Assembly (NCBI GenBank): GCA_046563655.1
Contig: CM102284.1
Coordinates: 8,866,001-8,930,000 of the forward strand
Direction: 5' to 3'
Source: Yuukianura sp. NJ FZ-2021
Taxonomy: Eukaryota
DNA: 64,000 bases
The translations under genes and the position numbers were made by a program. Below, piece after piece: positions 5,268-46,542 of this stretch. A model generated the notes under the pieces. The model searched no databases, had not been told where the DNA came from, and saw only the letters and a program-made list of their open reading frames with translations. Within the stretch, counting starts at the first letter, position 1, and every line of letters starts with the position of its first letter.

Positions 5268-8200
5268 TTACGATCCGCACATGACGCAGTCCTGGATCAC
5301 AAAAACATAAAATTCGTGAGACATTTCATAAAAATTGAATTCAAAATTACGAAAATGAATGTAAAATAATCGTTGAAGTTAACTTTTTTGACTCACATCT
5401 TTATTTTGAAGAGAGCAAGTCATTCCAGCCATGTTAGTCTCCTCCACTGTTACATTCAACTTGGATTTGTCAACGGTGAACTGAATCGCTGCAGCGGCTG
5501 GCTTCGTCCGCAAGTAGTACATTCCTGTCTTCAATCCCTGAAACAACAAAAAACCTCCAGTTTAACATTGCAAACTAACTTTCAAAAACTACAAATCCAA
5601 AATGACTCCAATTTCATACTTTTTTCCAAGCGTAGAAGTGCATGGACGTCAATTTGGCAAAGTTGGGCTGGGCAATGTGGATGTTAAGACTCTGTGATTG
5701 GTCAATAAAGGCACCGCGATCCGCCGCCATGTCAATCACCGCTCGCTGTGAAATTTCCCACACGGTCTTGTACAGTGCCTTGAGGTCATCTGGAATCTCA
5801 GGAATTCCCTGGACAGAACCATTGGCAGCGATCATCTTGTTCTTCATCGTGGAATCCCACAGGCCACGCTCTGTCAAATCTTTCAACAAGTGCGGATTCA
5901 CGACCTGGAAGAAAAAAAACACACATTTTTGCAATTTCAATTCAGTTTTGACAAAAATGTACCACAAAAGTTCTGTTTACCTGAAATTCTCCAGACAAAA
6001 CACGACGACTGTAGATATTTGAAGTGTAGGCTTCAACAGATTCGTTATTGCCCAAAATCTGAGCCGTGGAAGCCGTTGGCATTGGAGCCAGCAGAAGCGA
6101 GTTGCGAACTCCGTGCTTAGCTATTTCAGCTTTCAATTTAGCCCAATCCCAAAGATCCGTTGGAGTAACACCCCACATGTCATACTGCAAAATCTGCAAC
6201 AGACGAAACCAAAACATTCAAAAAAGAAGTTTCGAACCAAAATGCTAAAAAACTTTGAAGTTTCGACCCAAAATGCTGGAAAACTATCAAGTTTCGACCC
6301 AAAATGCTGGAAAACTATCAAGTTTCGACCCAAAATGCTGGAAAACTATCAAGTTTCGACCCAAAATGCTGGAAAACTATCAAGTTTCGACCCAAAATGC
6401 TGGAAAACTATCAAGTTTCGACCCAAAATGTTCAAGTTTCGACCCGATATGCTGGAAAACTTTCAAGTTTCGACCCAAAATGCTGGAAAACTTTCAAGTT
6501 TCGAACCGAAATGTTATGAAACTTTCAAGTTTTCTCCAAGTTGTCATATTGACATACCCCTTTGCTAACTGGCGATCCCTCATAAGTCTCGTACGGTCCA
6601 AGTTCAGCTGCCAGTTCCATACTTGCTTCCAGAGCACCGTGATAAATCGTCTCAAAAATCTGAATGTTGAGTTTTCTAGCTTTTTCAGAATCAAATGGAA
6701 ATCGCATGAGAATGAAAGCATCAGCCAATCCCTGCACGCCAATTCCAATTGGTCGGTGGCGCATGTTGGAACGTCTCGTTTCCGGAACCGGGTAGAAGTT
6801 TTCTTCAATGATTTTGTTCAGGTTGCGTGCAACGACTTTCGTAATTTGATGAAGTTTTTGGAAATCATATGTTTTGTCTGGTTTGACAAACATGTTGACA
6901 GCAATCGATGCCAAGTTGCAAACAGCAATCTGAAAATGAAAAAACAAGTTGAGATTAGCTAAAAAAAAGTACTCAATACTTTCAAATTCAATTCCTTCAG
7001 GGTAAAAAGTGTTTTTACCTCGTCGGGCGAAGAATATTCAACAATTTCGGTGCACAAGTTGGAACATTTGATTGTTCCCAAGTTTTGTTGATTGGATTTC
7101 CGGTTACAAGCGTCTTTGTACAGCATGTACGGAGTTCCTGTTTCAATTTGTGACTCAACAATTTGGTAAAACAGTTTCTGGGCTCGAACTTGTCTGCGGT
7201 AACGTCCTTCTTTTTCATATCTGAAAATAAAACCAACAATTTTACTCTAGTATCACCAAAACGAGTGTAAAATTATCAAAAATGTTAAAGTTATGAAAAC
7301 TCACTTGAGATACAATTCGTTGAACTTTTCACCCCAAACTTCAAAAAGTCCAGGACAGTCGTTGGGACACATCAAAGACCAATTTTCGTCTTTCTCTACT
7401 CGTTCCATGAACAAATCAGGAATCCACAATCCATAAAACAAGTCCCGAGCACGTTCCTCCTCTGATCCAGTATTTTTCTTCAAGTTCAGGAACTCAAAAA
7501 TATCGGCATGCCACGGTTCCAAGTAAATGGCGAAAGCACCAGGACGCTACAACACAAAAACATGCTTCAATTAACGTAAAACAAAGTAGAAATTGATAAT
7601 TACTTTGCTTTTTAGAGAAATCCTGACCTTGTTTCCACCTTGATCCACATACCGGGCTGTGTTATTGTAAACACGGAGCATCGGAACGAGTCCATTAGAG
7701 ACTCCATTGGTTCCTCCAATGTAAGATCCAGTTGCACGGATACAGTGCACGTTGAGTCCAATTCCACCAGCACTTTTGGAAATTACAGCACATTGTTTCA
7801 AAGTATCGTAAATCCCCTCGATTGAATCTGCTTTCATTGTTAGAAGGAAGCAGGATGACAACTGAGGATTGTTCGTAGCGGCATTGAACATCGTCGGAGA
7901 AGCATGAGTGAACCATCGCTAAAAATTGGAAATTCAATTCAATTTAACTTGTTAGTTGTTAAAAATTGTCAAGTGGTTTGGCTAAAAACTGACCTCGGAG
8001 AGTAAATTGTACGTCTCAATGGCACTGTCAATGTCCTCTCCATGAATTCCAACGGCCACTCGCATCAACATTTGCTGAGGTCGCTCCACCACTTTACCAT
8101 TGATCTTCAGAAGGTAAGAACGCTCCATCGTCTAAAAATCGTTCAAAATACGTCAATTGAGATGATATCAAGAGAAGCGTTAACTAATTAGTTTAGAATT

Positions 8201-27600: not shown

Positions 27601-30600
27601 GCTAGCGTAAAGTTTAAGGAATTAGAAAACACTTCAGTAACTTGTTACGGCGGGAAAGTGTCAAAAATTCTGCCACTTGGCGACATTTGCGACATTCGTC
27701 ACTTGGTGAGTTTTGTCGGGCGACATATTTTTTTTAACATTTTATTGACAAAAGTCGATATCTTACGAAATTTCTGACGGCGACATTCAAATTTACATTT
27801 ATCTTTCCAACATTCGCACGGCGACATTTCAACTAACTCGAATCGGAGACATTCCTAAGTTATTTGCCACAAGCAACAACATTCGTTAATTGCAATAGGG
27901 GTGACTGGCGACATTGAAACCGGCGACACGAATTTCGGCAGCATTGCAATTAAGGACATTAGTTGGCGACATTGCAATTTGTGACAGGTTATGGCGACAT
28001 TGAAACTAGTAAAATTCGACGCGGCGACATCGGTTACGGCGGCATTATCGTTTTAGGTTGTCGCCATTGGCGACTGACGCACTATGGGAGATGAGAAGAG
28101 AATGTGTCTCAACTTTTACGTGCAAAGTGAATGGAAAACCTGAAACACATTCCCTCTATATCTCCCACTGTGTGACGTTGAAATTGACGACATTGCCATT
28201 TGTGGTAGGTTATGGCGACATTGAAACTGGCAACATTCGGCGTTGCGACATTAGTTATAACGGTGACACTATCGTTTTGCAATCTCGCCATTGGCGACAT
28301 TGTATTCGTGAGGTTGCAGTTGGCGACATTGCAATTAACAATGTCGCCGCGATTCAACTAATGTTGCACCATTGCGATGGGCGACATTACGTTTGGTGAC
28401 ATTACAATTAGTGACATAGGTAATGGCGACATTCGTTTTACGACATTGCGATTGGCGACATCGCAATTTCAATTAAATTGGCGGGATTGCAGTTGGTGAC
28501 ATTTGATAGGTTATGGCGACATTGCAATTGACATTGGGGTTGGCGACATTGAAATTAATGACATAGGTAACGGCGACATTGAAGCTAGCGACACTAATAA
28601 ACTCCACAATGCTTTTGGCGACATAGGTTGCGGCGACGTCGTCGTTGCAGCTTGTTTAATTAAATTTCATGGCGACATTAAGGAGCACCAAGTTAAAAAA
28701 CCATCCTATTGTTCTAACAATTACGTTTTGCGTCTCAATTTCCCCAACCACCGAGCTTTTCATCCTGTAATTCTATATTTCATAATCGAAATACAGAACT
28801 TTTCTATATTTCTCATAATCGCAAAATATAGAATATGGAGCGTTCCATATTCTATATCTATATTCTATATTCTATATTTTCCATAATCTGAGTTGCAATT
28901 ACTCTCTATTGATTATACGAATACATATACTAATACTACACATATTTATAAATATTTTTAGATATTATATAAATATGTATGAATATATGTATATAAAATA
29001 TTTCGGAATGTAAAAATAGCGTGTTTTTTCCATATTTTTTTGTTGTAATATTTAATCTTTGAGGTTAACTTTTTAGTAAAGGCGTGTGAGATTGTTTTTT
29101 TTTGTAAGGCGTTTTGTGATTGGCTGAAATGGTGGGTATGTCTGTGCAGATTACGGTGGTGGTGTGATCTTTTGGAAAGAGGTTCACTTATTATCCACTT
29201 GGAATGATTGTTCACCTTAATCTTCTTGTGACTGTGTTATGTGTCTAGCATAAATGCTGATGCTGGGAAGTACATTCACGATACAGAGGGGAGTTAGTTG
29301 GCTTTTTGCAAAAGTTGAAAATTATTCACAGATCCACTTTTTATATTCCAATCTTTCTTTAGAGAAACTTGATTTTTTCTTGTCTAAAAAGTTTATAAAC
29401 TTAAAAAAACCTGTTGGAGAATACAGGTGAGTAAGGTGACAGATGAACAACAAATGATGAGGTGTTTCAACATTCTAAGAAACTTGAGCGTAGCTTAGTT
29501 CTTTAGAAAAAATCAAAATTTTTAAATTATTTTTTAAAATGATCTTGGCTAAAACCGGAACCACTTCTAGCGAAATTTTAAATCTTCCTGTTTTGTTTAC
29601 AGACAAATTCCAAATTAAGCCTTGGAACGTTTCCAACTTTTCTTTTCTCTGAATTTGAAACTTCTTTGTAATTTTTCGTTTTGTAAGTAAGGTAAACACG
29701 GATAGATGATGCGCGGAAATTTTTGTTTGGGTTTTCCTAAGTTCCTCTTTTGCTAAAATTAAACTCATTTCAATGTCATTTTCATTGAAAAGATTGCGAA
29801 AGTGTGAATCGGAGTTGCTCATAATATAACGTTAGTTGTTAGTTTTTGTTACTGCGGTTAAAAGACAAGTGGAAGTGACCGCCACCTTTGTTAATCTAAA
29901 ATGTCAAAGTCATTTCCTACGTCACTTGTTGTCATTAAATGTGAATCCTCTTGGTCAACTTGTGCCGACGGGATTCAAAATAAGCTTTTTAGGATTTAGA
30001 AGAAGCGGATTGTGGTTTCAGAATGAAAAAAAGTTAATATGTGATGCAAAAGTGATCTGACTCACAAAGCGCAACGAAATGAGAAGTCAAGTGGATTAAA
30101 TTGTGCGTTGATGAATTGACGCTGCGATGAGTTTTTTTTTATTAAATGTTGAATCATGTTGTGAAACGCGCCGTAACAGAAGATCGTACGATGCGAATAG
30201 GATGAATGATGATGTAGATGATCTAGACGGTGAAATTTTTGAAATTTTGACACGTCCAATTGTACAGGTCGAATTGGTTAGGAAAAAGTGATGATTTCAT
30301 TTTTAAGTTAACAAAATTTTATGTTGCGGATGTGATGTGGGTGGTGGTGTGATCCTAAATAATTCCATGACATATGAAACCTAACCTATAGTTAAGCTTA
30401 CCTAACACAGCTTGTTAAATTACAACGGTAACTGATGCATCACTCCACTTAACTTCGGTAAATAAAGCTTAATAGGCGTGACAAATTTTTAGTGAAATCT
30501 GAATCATCATTTAACAGATTGAGGAGGATTGTTAGGATGAAATTCTTAGAGATTTCGCACTTGAAAAGTTACGTTTTTGTTAAAATCTTTGGAAGAATGG

Positions 30601-33600
30601 GCATTGTAGGTTACGTTTTGAGGTTAAGGTTACCTGTTGATGTTGATTAGTTAACACAGAGGTATGAAAATCTGAGAAAGATTGCAACAGACGAAAAATA
30701 AGTTTTGGCCTCTTGACAATAACTTGATGTTGTTGCGAAATTTCTCCTCTTCGAAGTGTTGTCTATTTGCTCATTTCAAAATGGGATGGCGTGTGACTTG
30801 GTTTAATAAACAGGAGAACTTTAATTATAAAGTTTTAGAAGTTTTTTTTTGTAGGAAATTGAAATTGGCGAATTTCGCAAATTTTGATTTTCGCTAAATT
30901 CAATTTGACGCGAGTTTTATTCTTTTGTAAAATTTTGAAATGGTGGTAGACTTTGCACAATTTTTTGGCGGATGTTGAAATTTAAAAAAAAATACATTTC
31001 AGGATGTTGAAATTAAAACAAAAATACATTTCAGGATTCAGAATTTTTTTTTGCTTTTGAAATTAATTTTTGTGTTTAATATGACGTGTGCGTAGGGTTT
31101 AGAGGTAGAAGAATCTCACGAACCACATTGCAGAATGAGAAGCTGCCAAGTTTTTCTCATGATTCCACTACTAATTTCCCATAACCTAACAATTGCTTTT
31201 AGAAGTTGAAGTAAACCCACAGTATGTTGGTGGTTCATAAGTTTATAATACTGGCAATTGAAGTAGTGGCTTGACCAGTTGCTGTCTGGTAGTCGCCAGT
31301 TGATTTGCACAGTCTCTCCCCCCGTTTCACCTGTCCATCCCACTAAATTTCTAACTTCTTCATTCATTCAATTCTTAAGAGTAGGACACGACGACGCGAC
31401 TCTCAAAAGTGACTCGGAAGTTCTTGGACAATAAACTGTCAGAACTTCGAATTTTGAAACTTAGGTTTATGAAAAATTTAGAATTTTGAAATTGAGAAGG
31501 AGTGAAGGACGGATGGTTTTGAGCTGCAAAAATTTTGAGAGAGCGAGAGCGTAAAACTTTTTCAAAGGAGGCCAGTGACCATCAAAATCTCTTCACTTTC
31601 TCCTTTTTTCTTCAACTTTTGAAGTTTTGAACTTTTGAAAAGTGGAAGTTCTTCAGTGTGTAGTTTTTGTTGTTATTGCGATGGAATATTTTTGAAAAAG
31701 GCTACTAAAAAGAGGTGGATCAACAACTAAATTGTTCGTGGGAATCAAGATTTTTAGTGTAATTTGAAGGATTCGTGAACTGGTTGGGCTGAAATCCTTG
31801 ACTGGAGTCTTTGGCTCTGCCCTCTCCATCTACTAAAGTTTAGTTTAAAATGAAAATGGACATGGACGAGTCACATTTCGTGTCTGCCAATGCTGTTCTA
31901 TGGTAAATCTACTCAACTATTTACTACTACTGGGTGAACATCCTTGGAATTATTTTTGTGCAATCTTCGTGTCTCCCTGAAGTGTCTCTCTTTTGTTCTT
32001 CTTCTTTGAAGTTGTGAATTGTGTGTCAATAGTTAAGGAAATGTTGTGGTCAACAATCTTATTCACAAGTGTAGGAAATCGTTTTCTTATAAGTTCAGTT
32101 GTGGGAACAGAAAAAAGTTTTAGCCTTCTGTTGAGAACGAGGACATGATGACACACAATTAAACTTTAACTTTATAGGCGTTTTTCGATTAAAAATTACG
32201 AGTTTCGATTTTTTAGCGAAGCGTCTAATAGCTGAGTGTTTAAACTTTCGTTTTGAAGCAGCTATCACCAAGGGCTGTTTTGTTTTAAAATATGTCTGAG
32301 GTCAAAGTTCAATTTTGTCATGTCACTTGTGAAACTGGTATATTATGTTTTTCAGGGTTAGCTTTTTTAGTATTTGGGCAAAAAATTTGGGTTTTGAGTG
32401 TAAGATTGAAAATGGCGTGACATTTTGTTTTTGAGGCAGGTCACGTTTTATGAAATTTTGAAAGTGAGAGTTTGGCTTTCTCTTTTAAGTAATCAGAGAT
32501 GTTGATTAATCCTCTAATTTTTAGATGTTTGAGTTTCAGCATCAGAATGAACATAAAAAGTGGAAGTGTTTTGGTCAAGGTGACTTCTGAGTAGCATAGA
32601 CGTCATTCCCTCAGTTTTCCCGTAAATAATACACTCAAATTGACTAGAAAACTTTTCGGAGAAAATTTTTTTTTTCTTTTTGAAATTTTAATTTCGTGTA
32701 AAATCGAAATATGGATTTGGCTCTTAAAAGAACTTTTGCATACCAAAACAAGGTTATTTTGGAGGAAATTGGTGTTTAGGTGCCTTTCCGGTGGAAATTG
32801 GAAATTTAAATGGGTTTTTAATTTTAGAAATGAAGATTTTAGAAACTGAATTTTCGTCATTAACTTTTAGTTCATTGTAGAAAATGAGTTGACTTCTATC
32901 CGGTTTTTTTTTGAAAATGAAATGGAACTTGCATTACATAGCCAATAGAGTTAGAGTTAAACCAGGGAATTCTAAAGTCATTAAGGTTGAATGAAATGAA
33001 CTAGTTTGTTCAGAATTTGTCTAATGACTTGATTTTTTTGGTTTTTGCAGTAGATCGAGTGGTGGTAGCTCAAATGGTGGTCGGAGGAAAGCGTCCCGAT
33101 GGGACCCGACTGAAGCTCCGAACAAATCCACCGGAAGTCTCCTGACCACGATGGAACACTTTGTTCAAACCGTGGACGACATGAATGAAACGATTCTCGT
33201 GCCGTGTCGTCTCATGGATGCTAAATTTGACTCTCCGACGACCCAGCAAGTGCATGACCCCAAGGCCCATGTTCTCTCCAATCTAAGTGGAGTTGACCTG
33301 TTTCAGTTCTACACAATCCTCAACTCTGTCAAGAGTGACCTCATGTGGGGAAGCAAGAGTCAGACGGCTGGAAATGCTCCAGGCAGCACCGGAAGCAGCA
33401 GCAGCAGCGGCGTTCCGTCGACCGTTGCATCGTCAGTGTGCAATTCAAATTTTTCAGTGCTGGCTCAGTCTTCTGCCTCCTCGGCAAGTATAGTTTCCAA
33501 TGGAAGCGGAGAGGTCAAAGGGCACAAGCGACGACCGTCCACAGTGTCCACCACTTCGTCCGCTTCCGTTAGTGACACTGGTGAGCACAGATTTGGTAAA

Positions 33601-33844
33601 AAGTCAAATTTTAGCACTTGATTTTGAGTTTTTTTGTTTCGTTTTTTAAATTGTGTTTTTCTTTTAACCAGAATTTTCTGAACTGAATGATGATTCGGGT
33701 GTGGAAGGAGAAGAAGAATTTTCTCAGCACATTGCGGATACTTTCCAGCATCATCTGAAGGGACTTCAGCAGTGTCTGCGTGACCTCACTTTGGCAGCCA
33801 ACTATGTCACAAACAGATACAACAATGACCTTGGAGGTGCATAA
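24682..33844 (+). CDS. MID1IP1: Spot14/MID1IP1 (THRSP) family protein with a long first intron
   Basis: Phase-2 exon 24682-24785 joins in frame to the exon at 33051; motifs SLLTTMEHFVQTVDDMNETILVPCRLMD and FQHHLKGLQQCLRDLTLAANYVTNRY. Confidence 0.85.
27344..28908. mobile_element. Putative non-autonomous TIR element with internal GGCGACATT repeat array, possibly nested
   Basis: 16-bp TIR TAGAGAGTAATTGCAA / TTGCAATTACTCTCTA, subterminal ATATAGA/TCTATAT repeats, imperfect 8-bp flanks TACATTAT vs TTGATTAT; dozens of GGCGACAT/ATGTCGCC motifs at 27535-28680. Confidence 0.7.
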
Positions 33845-38702: not shown

Positions 38703-39480
38703 TGAATAGAAAATGCATTGTCGAGGCTGGGGGGGCAAGCCCCCCCAGACCCCCCCCCCTGCTTCTGAGTTGAGATGGAATTTTTGGAAGTCTGTGCTTG
38801 GAGGAGTAATGGAAAAGGGACACCCCTGAATCTTTCCACTCTTCCACACAGAGAGTTCTTTGCACATATAGTTTGCATGGTGATGCTATTAACATTGGGA
38901 CGGAGCAACGCTCGTCAATTAGAGTATGATGAATGAGTTTCACGCCAGATGAAAAATTTGCATATCGAAATATAGAAAAATAAATATCAACCACTGAGGC
39001 TAGATTAATTTTATTTTTCAACAGGCGTCTTGAGTAACTCAAAATGAGAAATTTCACCTGCTTTGTTGGTATAAAAATTGAGAAACTTTGCGAAATCTCG
39101 CAATTTTTTTCACATATAAAGTCAAGGGCGAATTTCATTGTTCATATAAAATTCCCATAGGCTTAGCGAATTGAAATTGACGAACATGTTTGAGGTTTAA
39201 TTTAAAATTCACAAAAGCCAAAGCTTTCGCAATGTCAATGTCACAGTTGTTGCAAAATTTGGGAAACCCCAAAAAAGAAGCAGCCTGTTCCGTTTTATGT
39301 TGAATTTAAAAAAATTTGCATGTCTTTAATGGCCTTGTTGGAGCATTTGTAAATTTTTACTTCATTGTAAATGTTGCAACGCGTCGAATTTCATCTCTTT
39401 AAGCTGGACCAAAATTATCCGGAAATTGAAAATTGGGCAACTTATTTTTTTTTCTGTAAAAATAAATAGTAATTGAGCGG

Positions 39481-39650
39481 GAGATCGGTGGTATGTGTGT
39501 TTCCCACTAACCAGAGAGATGTGGGTTCGAGTCCCACCGTCCGAGGGGGGCGGCAGTTCCACTACACGCAGTCGGCAGTCCCTCCTCTTGCACGTAGCTT
39601 AAGCAAAAGCGACTGTGTGGCCTAAACAATACTATCGGCAAATTTTTTTT
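39481..39650 (+). ncRNA. Circularly permuted tRNA-like gene, unit 1
   Basis: 3' half first (T-arm GTGGG-TTCGAGT-CCCAC 39521-39537, acceptor 3' strand CGTCCGA), then 5' half (TTGCACG-TA-GCTT-AAGCAA-AAGC-G-ACTGT 39588-39616); terminal stem; T8 at 39643-39650. Confidence 0.72.
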
Positions 39651-39760
39651 CGTAATATTATATTAACAAAGTCAAAAAATATAAAACTAAAAGTATACTG
39701 CCCGAACCCTCCCAAAGAGAAATGTCTAAAAAAAATCCCTGAAAGTAGCGATGTTGGGGC

Positions 39761-39944
39761 TAGAGGTTGGTGGTATGCGTGTTTTCCACTAAGCAGGAAG
39801 ATGTGGGTTCGAGTCCCACCGTCCGAGGCCTTGGAGAGCCAGTGCCTATTCCGCAGAAACGGAATAGAGCCAGTGCCTCCTTTGTCTCGCACGTAGCTTA
39901 AGTAAAAGCGACTGTGTGGCCTAAACAAATGCCACCTTTTTTTT
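39761..39944 (+). ncRNA. Circularly permuted tRNA-like gene, unit 2
   Basis: CCAC-TAA-GCAGG-AAGAT-T-arm-CGTCCGAG (39786-39827); insert hairpin; TCGCACG-TA-D-arm-ACTGT-GTGG-CCT-AAAC (39887-39926); T8 at 39937-39944. Confidence 0.78.
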
Positions 39945-40040
39945 CGTAATATTATATTAACAAAGTCAAATATAAAGCTAAGAACCTGAAAAAAAAAGAA
40001 ATTCTTAAAAAATCGCTAAAAGTACGGATGTTAGGGGGAT

Positions 40041-40218
40041 AGATTGGTGGTATGCGTGTTTTCCACTAAGCAGGAGGATGTGGGTTCGAGTCCCACCGTC
40101 CGAGGCCTTGGAGAGTCAAAGCCTATTCCGAAAACGGCATAGAGTTCGTACCTCCTTTGTCTCGCACGTAGCTTAAGTAAAAGCGACTGTGTGGCCTAAA
40201 CACAGTCACCAGTTTTTT
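40041..40218 (+). ncRNA. Circularly permuted tRNA-like gene, unit 3
   Basis: Same scaffold: 3' half 40063-40104, 5' half 40162-40197; terminal stem ATTGGTGGT/GTCACCAGT; T6 at 40213-40218. Confidence 0.78.
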
Positions 40219-40392
40219 AATGATATTATAATTATAATAATATTTAAAAGTACATTAAAATTCTCACATCGAAATTGTTGTTCAAATTAACACAACAAAC
40301 GAAAAGTATTTTATGAAATGAAAATTTAAGCCTAAATTAACTAATTTAAGGAAAAGTTAGCTAAATCTTACACTTACGTGATTAGTTGAAAC

Positions 40393-42975
40393 TTAGTTTA
40401 AATTAATTAGATCCACCATGATGCTCTGCATGACTGCTTTGGGTAACTCGAACTCCGTTTCAGCTTCACTTCCAACATTTTCATCATCCACATTTTCCCG
40501 CGCCAGCGGTTCTGCTTCTGCGTTTTCCTTTTGACAATTCATTTCCTCTTGGGCCAAAATGTCGTCCACTTTGGTCAAATTCAGAACAGAAACTCCCAGT
40601 TCCGTCACGTCCGAACTTTCGATGTCTCCCAAAGTATCCATAGTTTCATTTCCAGTGTCAATGCTGACAGGTTCAACAGATGAAGTTGACATGTCAGTAA
40701 CGGATGTTGACATTTCAGTGACCAATGATGTTGACATGTCAGTACTTCGATTGAGTTGCATGGAAGTATTTTGGTCTTTAGTTTTCTCAATCGATTGCTC
40801 TCCAGTTGGAGCAACTGAAGTATCAGTTGGAATTGCGTTGTTCCTGCGTTCTCGTTTCTTCATGAATTCCACTCTGCCCAAATGTTTCCTTGATTTCAGG
40901 TGACGAGCGAATGAACTTGGATAATTTGATTTGAACTTGCAAGTATCGCAAGTTAGCAGGTCGTTTACGACAAGTGAAGTAGAAGTGGTCGCTTGAGGCT
41001 GAGGTCGTTCTGGTTGAAGATGAAACTTGAAGTCACATTTGGGACAAGTAATTTCTTTTCCGCCAATTCCTGGTCAAGGTAATCATCAATTAATTAGTTG
41101 GTCTGACATCAATTAATCATCAATTAGTAATTGAAATTGAAGGATTGAAGTTTTCAACAACTTACGGTGAGTTCGAACATGAGCGCGATATGTATTGTAG
41201 TCTGCAAACTCTTTTTTGCAAGTACGGCATACCATTGGTTCGCCTCCATTGGCATGTCGAATGTAAAAGTGTTTCCGGAGATTACTGTCGCTGACAAACT
41301 CCATTTGGCAGAGACGACATTTGTACGTTTTCTTCTTCTCCTTTTGATGTGCAGAGTCCATGTGACTTTGTCGTTCATCGAACGAATCAAAACGTCGTCG
41401 ACAGAATTTACAGCGGAGGTCATCGTGACCTTGTCCTTTTCCGTTGGCTAAAGTGTGACCTCTAGTCTGTGTTCCAACATTACGTTGATCATCGGTAGGA
41501 CCAGTTTCCATTTCAAGTGCGCTTTTCACCATGTGTGAAGCTGGAGAACGACTGACGTTGTTCGGCATGCTCATTTCAAATGTTCTGTCCACTTCCACAT
41601 TTCCAATGTCTCCAATCAGCGTTGAATTGGCCGCGGGGTGAAAGTCGCCGACTTTGCGATGAGGTCCCTGTTGAGCTTGTTGACCCTGAGAAGGCTCATT
41701 GCCAAGAACGCTGAAGGGATCACGACTTCGAGCTGAAAAGTTACACAAAAACCATAAACGTTCGACATAACTTAAAAGAAGTATGAGAAAGCAAAAGTTA
41801 GGCTTTACATTGATCGGTCGGCGTCTGATTTTTAGAAGGACTTTGACTAAGAAATCCATCGTCAACGGAATCCGAATCTAGAGAGCAAAAATCAGACCAA
41901 ATTGACGGTGACACTGTCAAACTAAACTGAAAGTATTGGCGTGGGCTTACCATCGTCTGACATGAATCTTCTCAAGTTTTCATTCAAGACGTCTTCGTTC
42001 AGGTCCCCAGACGGATACAACGAGTACTCAATTGCAGACGAGCCAACAGAGTTCAGCTGGACTCCAGCGCTGGTAGGACGCGATGAAGTGCTTTTGCTTT
42101 GTTGATGACTGACGTTTGTGTTCGGAGTTCCGGATGGACGGTTTGCTGTTTTCTGGCCAGAGTTGATAGGTGGATTTTGAGGTCGTGGAAAGTCTCCAGA
42201 CACAAAGACGCTGCCTTCTCTACCACGGTGGACCTGCATGAAAGTCGTTCCAGTTTTCTGCAATGCCGTGTTCACAGATTGACGCCCAATAGATGACAAT
42301 GGCGTAGAAGTACAGAAATTAGACTTGGTTAGACAAGATGAACCGATGGAGCTCGTGATGCCAGTGAAGGCTCCCACAGAAGATGAAGAAGGGCATGATG
42401 ACCGAATCGACGAGCATTCAGGTGTACTCGGAGTTTCTTCAATCAAACATTTGTCATTAGTGCCTTATTAGAATCAAAAATTCAATCCAAAACAGAATCC
42501 GAAAATTAAACTCCTTGACTTACCGTTGCAAATGATTTCAATAGAAATAGAACTGGGCAGTTTAGGTAACGTGTTCATCCTTTGATTGAGAATGTTGGAG
42601 CCGCTTTGTAGACCTGACGACGAACGTTGGCCAGAACTTGTAGCGGGTAACATCGGACGCGGAAACTCTTTACCCTTTGCTGTACCAGAATTCTTTCCAT
42701 TTTCATCAGACAAAGTCGTATCGCTCATAGCCGTCACATCTATGGCTTCCCGTGGAACATTTTGAATCAAGTCTACATCAACAAATGGAATTAGTAATCA
42801 CGTTCCGTTTGAAATAACATAGTACTTAGACTTACTAATGAATAAACTCACTTGTGATTCCATTGAGACATTCTCGTACTGTCGACAGTTTCGTTCTCAA
42901 ACGTTTGACTTCCGGAGGCTTGGATTCATCCAGCCCCGACGCCCCCATGACCTTGTTCTCCTTGTCAGGATCCAT
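40393..42975 (-). CDS. C2H2 zinc-finger protein, multi-exon
   Basis: First exon MDPDKENKVMG.. with GTGAGT donor; fingers CKFC..H..H, CRLC..H..H, CRTC..H..H, CPKC, CDTC..RH; acidic C-terminus. Confidence 0.8.
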
Positions 42976-44257
42976 TCCTCGCGATTCCAGAAATGACAAT
43001 TGATGAGAGAAACCGGATTTTGCGTAAAACTGAAAGTCACCTTGACGCTGACCAAGATGTCACATCCAGCCGCACAGTGGGGCAGAATCAAAAATAACAC
43101 GCCACGGTTGTTAGGGGAAACGTTAAATGAAATTTAGAAATTACATTGAAATTGAATGCCAAAATCGGGATTCAGAAAGATCGAAATCCCGAAAAATCCC
43201 GGTAACCGAATGTCAATCTGGAGGTTGGAATAAAAACTACACACCGTCACGTAACAAGTCCGAGCACGACTTCTTGCGGTTTTTTCAATTTTGCATTTTT
43301 AATTGATTTTTCAATTTGGAATAAAATTGTGGCTATGGGGGGTAATTAATACCACCAATTAAGAAATTTTAAAACTCGAATTGTGATAAAACAGCTACAA
43401 ATTTCATAAAAATTTCATTAATGAATACAAAATACAAAATGTACTTTTTATGTCTCAACTTTTGAATTTGACATAGCGGGAATACCGGTATTTTGAATAC
43501 CTTTTGTGTTGCAGTAAGGTTTAACGAGTGTAATTGTACCCGCTCAGTATAGACTTATGTGGCATAGCTAGAATGTGCTAATTAATTATTAAATGAATTT
43601 AGGTAATTAAAAAACAATTAAGCCCAGATGTTGTCACGTGGTGCAACTATTGAAAGCAAGATGCAAAGTTACCTAACCGGGTGGAAACAATGACTATCGA
43701 TAAACCTTGCCTCAACCAAATTCTCACTTTTTCTCAGATTTTCAGAAATCATTGACTGAACAAGAGGACTTCTTTGTTGTTGTTGGCGAAACTTCATTTA
43801 TCGGTAAGTTAATTAGTTAATTATGTAAGTTTAGTTTAAGTTTTAGGTTGATTATAGGTTTAGGGTTTAGTATTCAGGTTGAACAGGACGAAAGCTGACG
43901 ACATGGATCCATCTACGAAGACATCATCATCATGCTCTACAACAACTGCAAAAACGCCAAACTTGAGTTAAATTGATTGAAATTTATATTTTCATTTTGA
44001 TTCATATATTCATTGCATTGAAAAGTCACTAATCTTTTAACAGGTTTTTTTGTGGGAATTAATGAAACGGGTCATGCCAAAATTTTTTTTGAAAACTATG
44101 GGGGGGAAACTTTTGCAACTATTCTTATGTTGGGAAAGTGTTGCAAAATGTCTGACATTATCAATATCAAAATATAAATGAAAGATTTATGTTTTTATAG
44201 ATTCTTGTTTCAAATTAAAATTCGTTATATGTCAATTGGTTATATTCTTATTTGCAG

Positions 44258-46542
44258 ATGGCGCTGAAATGGTCAGACTTGATAATGCTGCGAAACATGG
44301 GCAACCATTACTTGGACGAAGGCTTAGAGGTCGTGAAGAGCCACATCAAAAGAAAATTGACAGATTTGGAAGTGAAGGACTTGCGAAAATTGATTGGAAC
44401 ATGGCAATACCACTACAACAAAAAATGGAAACAGACAACTGTGGCAAGAAAAATGTCAAAATTTCTCGAAAAAGAAGCTGTTTGGCTTGAGAAAACTGTC
44501 GAAATTCCGCAGCGATTTCGTCAACAAGAAAAATTAGAAGTAACCGGCTCATCGGTTAGGTCCTCACAGCGTCTTGTTGCCAAGGTTTCAAATCAACAGA
44601 AAGAAACACCGCAAGTCCTCCTTAAGGCTACTGCCAGAACCATTGCCACCACAGGAACTCCAAAAAGCAGGTTTAAAGCTAAAGTCCTGAAAGAACTGGC
44701 CAAACAACCATCATCTGCTGAAACAATGTGGACCTCTTACAAACGACCACCAAGGAAACCTCGAAGGAACTTGACTCCAGAAGAAGCCCTTAAGCTGCTA
44801 CTAGAATTGAACTTGACTAGAGCAAACTACGATACCCTTAGACAAGTTACGAATGATCTGGGTCACGAGAACTTGTTTCCGTCCTACAAGAAAGTCCAAG
44901 TTGCAAAATTGGCTTGCCGCCCAGATGGCGTTGCTGTTGAGGAGAGGGAAGTCAGCGTTCCACTCCAGAATTTATTGGACCATACTTGTGGAAGAATAGT
45001 TGCAATGAACAAGGATGGAATTGTTGACCACGTTAGATCATCTCAGCAAAACACAATGGACGCGGAAATGATTGTCACTTGGGGGTTAGATGGAGCTGGA
45101 GGACAGTCTCGGTACAAACAGAAAGGTGTTGAAGAAGGATATGTCGAAGAAACGCACTTGTTGACAACTTCACTCATTCCGTTGCATCTGCAGGCATCTA
45201 ATGGCCAAGTTTACTGGAGTAACCCTACACCTCAATCACCTAACTTCTGTCGGTCACTCAAGGTTCAATTTGTCAAGGAGTCCAAGGAGATTGTATTGAA
45301 GGAACGAGACCGTGTTCACTCTGAGATCCAGCAATTGGAACCCTATGTTGTAGACATTGGCGAAGGCGTAAAGTAAGACGATTACATTTCTCTCAATTGT
45401 ATTTTTTCTTTATATAACTTTGTTCCAGGCTCACAGTAAAGTTCAAATTGGTTCTGAGCTTAGTTGACGGGAAGGTCCTCAGCTATCTGACGGAATGTGA
45501 TAGCTCACAAAAGTGCCCTGTATGCCACGCCCGTCCTTCCGATTTCATTCGTCAAAATATCGGAAGTAATGTCTTCAGTCCAAAACCGGGTAGTTTGGAG
45601 CATGGGATAAGTCCACTTCACGCAACAATGCGAATATTCGAATGCTGCCTCCACATAGCCTACAAGCAACAGTTTAAACAATGGTAATTAATTGTTTACC
45701 GTACTTGTCTTGAAATTGAAGTTAGTACTTAGTTGTGTCTGTTTTTAGGCGTACATCTGCAGAAACTGTTGACGCTGTGAAAGCTAAAAAACGCCTAATT
45801 CAACAGCGTTTATTCAAAGAAATGGGCTTACTGGTTGACTTCCCAAAGACTGGGGGCGGGACAAGCAATGATGGTAACACAGCTAGGCGGGCTTTTGCTA
45901 ATCCTGAGAAGTTCTGTGAAATTATTGACTTTGACTTGGAGCTCTTCAAACTTCTTCGTAATGTGTTGCTTGCGTTGACCTGTCAGCTCCCAATAAATCC
46001 TGTTGAGTTTGGCAAGCTATGTCGTTCCGCCGCTGAACTTTACCACGACAAGTACGAGTGGTACAAGATGCCTCAAACTCTCCATAAAGTCCTCATTCAT
46101 GGAGAGGAAATTGTCAAACGAAGGTACTTCTTTACTTAAGCTTATTTTTAATCGTGTACATCTTTTAGTAATCATGTAATCAACTTTATCTAGCCCCTTG
46201 CCAGTGGGAATCCTTGGAGAAGATGCGCAGGAGAACAGACACAAATGGCTCCGTTATTTCCGTCTCCACCATTGTCAAAAGCATTCTCGGAAAAAGACCA
46301 ACGAAGATTTGTTCAACCGTTCCCTGGATACATCAGACCCTTTGCTTTCTTCTAATCGTTTGACGAAGCCTGTTAAACGCACCAACAGGTTGTCCCTTGC
46401 GGCAATCCAAAACATTTTGCAGGAGCCTGTTGTTTCCCGTCTGGAGGAACCACTTGAAAATGTTGGCCTGGGAGATGTCGATGATGATTTGTTCCTCTAT
46501 TTTGATGAAGATATACCTGTTGGATTAGAGTTAGATGTCTAG
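44258..46542 (+). CDS. Transib transposase (RAG1-core-like), 4 exons: 44258-45372, 45429-45683, 45749-46123, 46194-46542; 697 aa
   Basis: Exons join in frame with GT-AG introns; DDE motifs WGLDG, VDGK, EDAQENRHK; Zn ligands CPVC and LHKVLIHG; GGGTSNDGNTARRAF; SPLHA. Confidence 0.93.

Follow-up and report, generated by a model that had tools for sequence, protein, structure and literature searches.

We describe three tRNA-like units that lie in tandem within a 64,000-nucleotide stretch of the genome of Yuukianura sp. NJ FZ-2021 (assembly GCA_046563655.1, contig CM102284.1, positions 8,866,001 to 8,930,000 of the forward strand; hereafter the window), and in which the two halves of the tRNA body are written in permuted order. 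The structured units stand head to tail on the forward strand at 39487-39650, 39769-39944 and 40046-40218, inside a repeat region (39452-40252) that spans about 2.8 periods of 277-282 bp and for which Tandem Repeats Finder reports a period of 277 across 39714-40230. Their leaders, each opening with GGTGGTATG, begin at 39487, 39769 and 40046, which confirms a preliminary description of this DNA that had counted three units with periods of 282 and 277 bp; the T-arms start at 39521, 39803 and 40080, and the tail GTGTGGCCTAAAC begins at 39615, 39914 and 40189. A 26-nt motif of T-arm and acceptor and a 38-nt motif of D-arm and tail each occur three times in the window, always within the units, with none expected from 100 shuffles.

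All three units share one order: leader, tRNA 3' half, a linker of 42, 59 or 57 nt (units 1, 2 and 3), tRNA 5' half, trailer, and a closing run of thymines (T8, T8 and T6). Both the placement of the 3' half ahead of the 5' half and a final run of T6-T8 had been pointed out before, and both are present in every unit. The leader, with the consensus GGTGGTATG(C/T)GTGTTT(T/C)CCACTAA throughout, is followed by five bases of anticodon-stem 3' strand, a 5-nt variable loop and a canonical T-arm, then by a 7-nt acceptor 3' strand with an additional G, the linker, and a 7-nt acceptor 5' strand. The 5' half continues with TA, a 4-bp D stem with a 6-nt loop, a G and the anticodon-stem 5' strand, and the trailer consists of GTGG, CCT, AAAC, a unit-specific stretch of 10-15 nt and the T-run.

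Unit 2, whose free minimum free energy (MFE) structure is the proposed one, serves as the reference copy. Its outer stem 5' strand (39769-39776), GTTT (39781-39784) and CCAC (39786-39789) lead to the TAA bulge (39790-39792), beyond which lie GCAGG (39793-39797), the variable loop (39798-39802), the T-arm (39803-39819), the acceptor 3' strand (39820-39826), G73 (39827) and the 59-nt linker (39828-39886). The acceptor 5' strand (39887-39893), the D-arm (39896-39909) and ACTGT (39911-39915) complete the tRNA body, and GTGG (39916-39919), the CCT bulge (39920-39922), AAAC (39923-39926), the outer 3' strand (39927-39936) and T8 (39937-39944) form the trailer. Unit 1, the weakest copy, has its leader at 39487-39507, the TAA bulge at 39508-39510, the anticodon-stem 3' strand with the variable loop at 39511-39520, the T-arm at 39521-39537, the acceptor 3' strand with G73 at 39538-39545, the 42-nt linker at 39546-39587 and the acceptor 5' strand at 39588-39594; its D-arm (39597-39610), anticodon-stem 5' strand (39612-39616), GTGG (39617-39620), CCT bulge (39621-39623), AAAC (39624-39627), outer 3' strand (39628-39642) and T8 (39643-39650) follow. 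The corresponding elements of unit 3 are the TAA bulge (40067-40069), the T-arm (40080-40096), the acceptor 3' strand with G73 (40097-40104), the 57-nt linker (40105-40161), the acceptor 5' strand (40162-40168), the D-arm (40171-40184), ACTGT (40186-40190), GTGG (40191-40194), CCT (40195-40197), AAAC (40198-40201), the outer 3' strand (40202-40212) and T6 (40213-40218). The sequences GCAGG and TCGCACG and the D loop AAGTAA, earlier ascribed to every unit, hold for units 2 and 3; unit 1 reads CCAGA, TTGCACG and AAGCAA instead, the departures being its anticodon-stem 3' strand, acceptor base 2 and a single base of the D loop.

The unconstrained MFE structure of unit 2 matches the proposed structure exactly (-67.6 kcal/mol, z -5.31, none of 200 shuffles as good). 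From the terminal stem inward it passes through a short helix and two 3-nt bulges with a 4-bp helix between them to the anticodon stem, and further in lie the T-arm, an acceptor stem continuing into a linker hairpin, and the D-arm. In unit 1 the proposed structure lies 0.4 kcal/mol above the MFE when the core pairs are enforced. The acceptor stem carries a C.C mismatch (C4.C69) in all three units, and the anticodon stem, with an A27.G43 mismatch, forms four of its five pairs in units 2 and 3 and three in unit 1.

No tRNA is reported by ARAGORN in the native 64 kb window at default thresholds. When the units were rearranged by script into spliced forms, the 5' half through the second bulge base being followed by the 3' half starting at the third, with CC and A flanks added, ARAGORN at default thresholds found a tRNA in all three; with natural flanks at the bulge-predicted junction, all three were still called, and the rotated, unspliced units were called solely at lowered thresholds. 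The claim that a cloverleaf can be rebuilt from the swapped halves stands, and the MFE structure of unit 2 agrees with it. Searches of Rfam returned no family at gathering score across the whole window and no match to the tRNA model within 39000-40700 at E up to 10.

The ends of the units meet in the bulged motif of the unit 2 MFE structure (3-nt bulge, 4-bp helix, 3-nt bulge), whose letters are identical in all three units. The 4-bp helix takes up positions 32-35 next to the 5-bp anticodon stem, and its proximal pair is G32:C. In such motifs the canonical cuts come after the second bulge base; here one would follow base 37 and the other precede base 38, making a 37/38-type junction. An earlier reading of TAA and CCT as the two bulges is thus upheld as to geometry, which fits 37/38, and qualified on the outer side, where one extra base faces CCT.

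Two further interpretations of the array start from the joining of one unit to the next. An ordinary intron-containing tRNA gene, its exons supplied by neighbouring units, was considered and rejected: ARAGORN allowing introns up to 400 nt made no call at default thresholds, and each would-be intron contains a T8 run, in keeping with the argument already made against such genes. The units could also be a relic, that is, the decaying inner part of a tandemly duplicated intron-containing tRNA gene from which no functional RNA is expressed. We consider this improbable. With lowered thresholds and introns, ARAGORN does combine the 5' half of a unit with the 3' half of its successor (39587-39830 and 39886-40107), the anticodon stem and fold of unit 1 are degraded, and several tRNA rules are broken. 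However, the array opens with a 3' half and closes with a 5' half plus T-run, and the way in which the copies have diverged is hard to reconcile with decay, which if neutral would be even.

Identity between units amounts to 92-98% in the leader with the 3' half and 95-100% in the 5' half with the bulged tail, as against 48-83% in the linker, 40-58% in the outer 3' strand, 47-72% in the 60 bp upstream and 51-62% in the 100 bp downstream; the core thus lies at 92-100%, and linker, outer strand and flanks at 40-83%. Counted pairwise, the tRNA-like blocks agree at 92/99, 93/100 and 98/99 positions and the non-core sequence at 147/267, 134/265 and 165/253 (Fisher p at most 1e-13 for each of the three comparisons). 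Pairing has been retained with different sequences in both the outer stem and the extension of the acceptor, a further point against mere decay. The divergent outer 3' strands all pair with the leader, and random window pieces of equal length did as well in only 61, 3 and 74 of 2000 trials, which supports the previous observation that this stem is kept despite its unit-specific 3' strands. The linker of unit 1 is essentially unalignable with those of units 2 and 3 (48-53% identical), and both kinds lengthen the acceptor helix. We conclude that this animal genome carries a genuine family of permuted tRNA-shaped units, low in copy number and under constraint, whose bulged junction is of the 37/38 type.

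The spacers between the units (39651-39768 and 39945-40045) are identical over the first 31 bases past the T-run in periods 1 and 2 and indel-rich over the remainder, and spacer similarity extends beyond unit 3 to about 40252. The T-run plus the next 31 bases (39643-39681 and 39937-39972) are identical despite unlike preceding stretches of 10-15 bases, and the 3' flank after the T-run of units 1 and 2 is better kept than the linker.

Permuted tRNA genes have been described only from a red alga, a number of green algae, and from a nucleomorph and a single archaeon (PMC4033280, PMC3978253). For comparison we took the type II genes with a 37/38 junction of Cyanidioschyzon merolae, prasinophyte green algae and the Bigelowiella natans nucleomorph, together with those of Thermofilum pendens. 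The known genes have an intervening sequence of 1-74 nt (PMC3978253), a bulge-helix-bulge (BHB) at their paired termini, a TATA-like sequence upstream and a T-stretch downstream; the green-algal junction is often at 37/38, maturation proceeds via a circular intermediate that is then opened by RNase P and tRNase Z, and the genes arise by tandem duplication of an intron-containing gene (PMC3978253, PMC4033280). The units share with them a short sequence between the acceptor ends, a leader/trailer BHB at the junction, AT-rich sequence upstream, a T-stretch downstream and the lack of an encoded CCA (PMC3978253, PMC4033280). In all three, the 3' half is placed upstream of its 5' counterpart on the same strand, and the linkers of 42, 59 and 57 nt are within the known 1-74 nt (PMC3978253). 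At the level of sequence, the features of permuted tRNA genes are found here, with the outer bulge in a slightly relaxed form and apart from the promoter and terminator signals, for which the upstream sequence does not stand out from an AT-rich background and a T4 lies inside the leader of units 2 and 3. The differences are that the host is an animal and the copies are in tandem, that tRNA rules are violated in both the anticodon loop and the D loop, with no fitting isotype, that the acceptor helix continues into the linker, and that circle and mature tRNA are here predictions from sequence. Among 40 of the 46 publications since 2015 that contain the term, judged by their titles, we found no animal case.

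The explanation we favour is that these are genes of RNA polymerase III (Pol III) type for a permuted tRNA-shaped RNA that is probably circularised by TSEN and RtcB, to which we assign a probability of roughly 0.4. Put more broadly, and at about 0.45, this animal may carry dedicated permuted tRNA genes whose transcripts TSEN would cut at a 37/38-type BHB and RtcB would close into a tRNA-shaped RNA circle, later opened or not; it would be the first such case outside algae and archaea. We infer the steps of transcription, cleavage and ligation, and any function, from what is observed, namely anatomy, fold, cloverleaf call and block-wise conservation. Each gene of this small tandem family would give an RNA of about 160-175 nt with the tRNA body in permuted order, in which the linker would close and extend the acceptor stem, and in which the 5' leader would pair with the 3' trailer and prolong the anticodon stem into a BHB-like motif at the 37/38 intron position. 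Transcription would begin near the GGTGG leader and stop at the T-run; TSEN would then recognise the tRNA body and cut in both bulges, and RtcB would join the new ends into a circular tRNA-shaped RNA that retains the linker, with predicted sizes of 113, 130 and 128 nt. Eukaryotic tRNA introns lie invariably at 37/38, the BHB consists of a 4-bp helix with a 3-nt bulge on either side, and the conserved requirement is the proximal anticodon-intron (A-I) pair, with TSEN also reading the acceptor stem and D-arm (PMC10485636). Metazoan TSEN and RtcB are moreover described as making circles from tRNA introns (PMC4536317). The tRNA intronic circular RNAs (tricRNAs) formed in this way are a parallel in mechanism, the same two enzymes and a 37/38-type bulged junction being proposed here (PMC4536317, PMC10485636). 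In tricRNA biogenesis, however, the intron becomes the circle and the exons the linear tRNA, whereas here the tRNA body would circularise and leader and trailer would be discarded.

Several observations weigh against this explanation. The whole fold of unit 1 is no better than shuffles (z +0.40), and the proposed structure of unit 3, although that unit scores z -3.84, lies 6.3 kcal/mol above a different MFE. All copies belong to one lineage, and no pair in the core of these three closely related sequences has changed on both sides; nor do the two strands of the bulged helix vary at all, an invariance that would suit a sequence-specific binding site equally well. One extra base (T or C) opposite CCT turns the outer bulge, in one register, into a 3x1 internal loop. 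The 6-nt D loop has a single G and no G18G19, so that the elbow read by tRNA enzymes is weakened, and in units 2 and 3 the leader contains, at +14, a T4 that could be a weak Pol III stop. Rfam shows no tRNA signal beyond the T-arm, and ARAGORN accepts any join that gives a 7-nt loop (9, 65 and 54 of 221 joins in units 1-3), so its calls certify the cloverleaf body, not the junction or the anticodon. TSEN54, finally, reads the acceptor stem (PMC10485636), which in these units is closed and extended.

How well the units would fit a working tRNA differs between the two ends of the predicted molecule. In standard numbering, U8, A14, A15:U48, A21, A9 with U12:A23, and G26 with A44, as well as G53:C61, T54, T55, C56, R57 and A58, are all in place, and with them the T-arm and the tertiary core. 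The rebuilt anticodon loop reads G32, U33, G34, G35, C36, C37, A38, whereas position 32 of tRNAs is as a rule a pyrimidine and position 37 a purine. The GGC anticodon is accompanied by G3:C70; alanine identity needs G3:U70, and GGC is an unusual alanine anticodon in eukaryotes. G73 pairs with base -1, and because the acceptor helix runs past position 73 into the linker, no RNase P or RNase Z site is set off. As for the isotype, ARAGORN gives Ala(GGC) for units 2 and 3 and, in a shifted register, Gly(GCC) for unit 1. We could not assign a parent tRNA isotype, as the ARAGORN anticodon depends solely on where the join is placed and many anticodons can be obtained. On sequence grounds, then, selection seems to have acted on the L-shape but not on the decoding end.

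A circle opened by RNase P and RNase Z, completed with CCA, charged and used in decoding strikes us as highly improbable. Such a tRNA would be favoured by the 7-bp acceptor stem without encoded CCA, which is eukaryote-like, by linkers of 42-59 nt within the 1-74 nt known for permuted genes (PMC3978253), by the canonical T-arm and core tertiary positions, and by the Ala(GGC) and Gly(GCC) calls; those calls are nevertheless unequal among the units. G32 and C37 in the loop, the one G of the 6-nt D loop, the mismatches C4.C69 and A27.G43, a G3:C70 in place of G3:U70 together with an anticodon unusual for alanine, and a G73 paired with base -1 in a helix that continues, leaving the cleavage site without demarcation, all speak against it. 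The suggestion of a working tRNA as product is for these reasons not borne out (G32, C37, no G18G19, GGC without G3:U70, an extended acceptor helix). Because the core tertiary positions are kept and the decoding end is broken, we rank a non-decoding product above a decoding tRNA, and we think that the predicted product of circularisation stays a non-decoding tRNA-like RNA and not a charged tRNA.

The same features would also suit an RNA that is made and remains uncut, with a closed-acceptor tRNA-shaped module set on a protein-binding bulged terminal stem, the architecture of bacterial YrlA. We take this possibility seriously while holding it to be unlikely. YrlA (RF02553) gives the sole full-length Rfam alignment, with stem, T-arm, closed acceptor and D-arm in the same order, and YrlA RNAs have been likened to tRNAs that are circularly permuted and have their acceptor stems closed (10.1101/312249). 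Conservation of the leader 5' strand next to a variable partner strand recalls what is reported for Ro60 sites (10.1101/312249); the anticodon loop is also non-canonical, and the acceptor helix extends beyond position 73. On the other hand, the YrlA alignment is confined to unit 1 and, at 16.6 bits (E 3.7), falls far short of the gathering score of 69; the Y_RNA family yields no match at E up to 10; the leaders lack both Ro motifs, GGUCCGA and GNCGAAN0-1G (PMC4201824); a tRNA-like domain is, according to the same paper, not apparent in known metazoan Y RNAs (PMC4201824); and the exact 3-4-3 geometry at 37/38 would have to be a coincidence or an inherited relic. The units do bear a tRNA-like module, made up of a T-arm, a closed acceptor and a D-arm, on a stem in which the two RNA ends pair, as YrlA does. 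Given 16.6 against 69 bits and the absence of the Ro60 motifs, we regard the units as YrlA-like in architecture and not as members of that family. The likeness lies in an end-formed terminal stem that bears, in order, a T-arm, a closed acceptor-like stem and a D-arm (10.1101/312249); the D-loop GG is kept in YrlA and absent here, and the setting here is of eukaryotic Pol III type with a T-run and without a Ro60-binding motif. A literature search on animal tRNA-like Y RNA or permuted Pol III repeats found nothing relevant.

The number and distribution of copies bear on whether the repeats belong to a mobile element. With all filters off, nhmmer found no copies in the 64 kb beyond the three units, diverged ones included, and pattern scans of metagenomes (T-arm, gap, D-arm; D-arm plus tail) returned no stretch for either pattern. 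Contigs from the species' own DNA runs match the core and then continue into unlike sequence; therefore, further copies exist. Over the core, the contig depths add up to no more than about 8 times the values in neighbouring bins (1137-1150 versus 147-157 in run X3), a figure that is not a copy number and that hints at few copies only in the sense of 'not thousands'. A paralogous copy in contigs of runs X1 and X3, at 39925, has beyond the bulged tail a different complementary 3' strand, a T4 only, and then a second partial copy of the tail motif.

Under a mobile-element interpretation, the repeats would be parts, resembling long terminal repeats (LTRs) or short interspersed nuclear elements (SINEs), of a small non-autonomous retroelement whose Pol III promoter derives from a tRNA, and the blocks would be kept for transposition. 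Helenus TRIMs, which carry tRNA-like sequence in their LTRs, occur in six animal phyla and are reported in tandem arrays (PMC10886601), and the roughly 2.8 periods (about 39452 to 40252) would fit three repeats and two internal pieces. Spacer 1 contains a purine-rich tract and TGCCCGAAC, and the core-matching contigs with unlike continuations again show that other copies exist. Even so, we see little probability in this alternative. The tRNA parts of Helenus stand in normal A-box to B-box order (PMC10886601), whereas the units are permuted. A TGG-initiated primer-binding site does not follow the repeat, a weak candidate in spacer 1, which lacks TGG, being deleted in spacer 2; the repeat boundaries fall in low-complexity AT-rich sequence in which no target-site duplication is readable; and an A-rich tail is absent. 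In the 64 kb, the unfiltered nhmmer search found only three units, tandem and not dispersed, and the depth over the core, although not a copy number, stays at or below about 8 times its surroundings. LTRs of one insertion should, moreover, diverge evenly, and the units do not. Compared by description, the units resemble Helenus TRIMs and animal tRNA-derived SINEs in having tRNA-derived sequence with a B box, in being multi-copy and in that tandem arrays are possible (PMC10886601); they differ in their permuted halves, in that the search for a primer-binding site, a clear polypurine tract, a target-site duplication or an A-rich tail gave none of these, and in that all three copies in the 64 kb are in tandem.

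With regard to transcription signals, AT-rich sequence lies less than 50 bp upstream of each unit, as has been reported for algal permuted genes (PMC3978253). An upstream TATA box could not be distinguished from the AT-rich background of this genome (about 61% A+T) and was set aside, as was an A-box-like interpretation of the leader, which is weak: only unit 3 reaches seven of the nine specified positions there, and the sole 7-of-9 A-box-like site of unit 2 lies 23 nt upstream of its leader. The upstream block of unit 1 (39452-39486, forward strand) consists of an AT-rich, TATA-like stretch and then a purine-rich GGG.GAG block, and equivalent blocks precede units 2 (about 39734-39768) and 3 (40011-40045). 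The purine-rich block is also present in paralogous contigs of the species' sequencing runs and may serve as a promoter or a 5' leader, or may represent a polypurine-like tract.

If the favoured explanation is right and the units are expressed and circularised, they would provide a second natural class of TSEN/RtcB substrates in animals and a gene-encoded circular RNA with a tRNA fold in these organisms, as well as a living example for the tandem-duplication model of permuted gene origin. It would also follow that standard tRNA finders and Rfam, both of which made no call here, miss such genes altogether.

The remainder of the window supports an animal origin of the sequence through its gene context. 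Intron-split exons match ribonucleotide reductase, with eukaryotic large subunits as the best PDB matches, and others match a C2H2 zinc finger, a class II aminoacyl-tRNA synthetase, a 5'-nucleotidase and Spot_14. The open frame with the Spot_14 family domain lies at 33028-33621 on the forward strand (E 4e-12); Spot_14 is regarded as an animal-specific family. On the same strand, two overlapping open frames at 6023-6962 repeat a peptide motif of about 30 residues several times, which points to a minisatellite of about 90 bp within the intron-split ribonucleotide reductase gene, and a repeated GDI-type motif abounds in the open frames at 28013-28886, suggesting a further short tandem repeat. Beyond the array, a 24-bp tandem repeat of 2.7 copies (40685-40745) lies within a reverse-strand open frame (40393-41073) that adjoins the C2H2 zinc-finger frame at 41113-41877. 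Further on, three successive long open frames of 385, 137 and 120 aa occupy 44219-46542 on the forward strand; the first lacks a Pfam match, and together they may represent an unannotated or mobile-element-derived gene.

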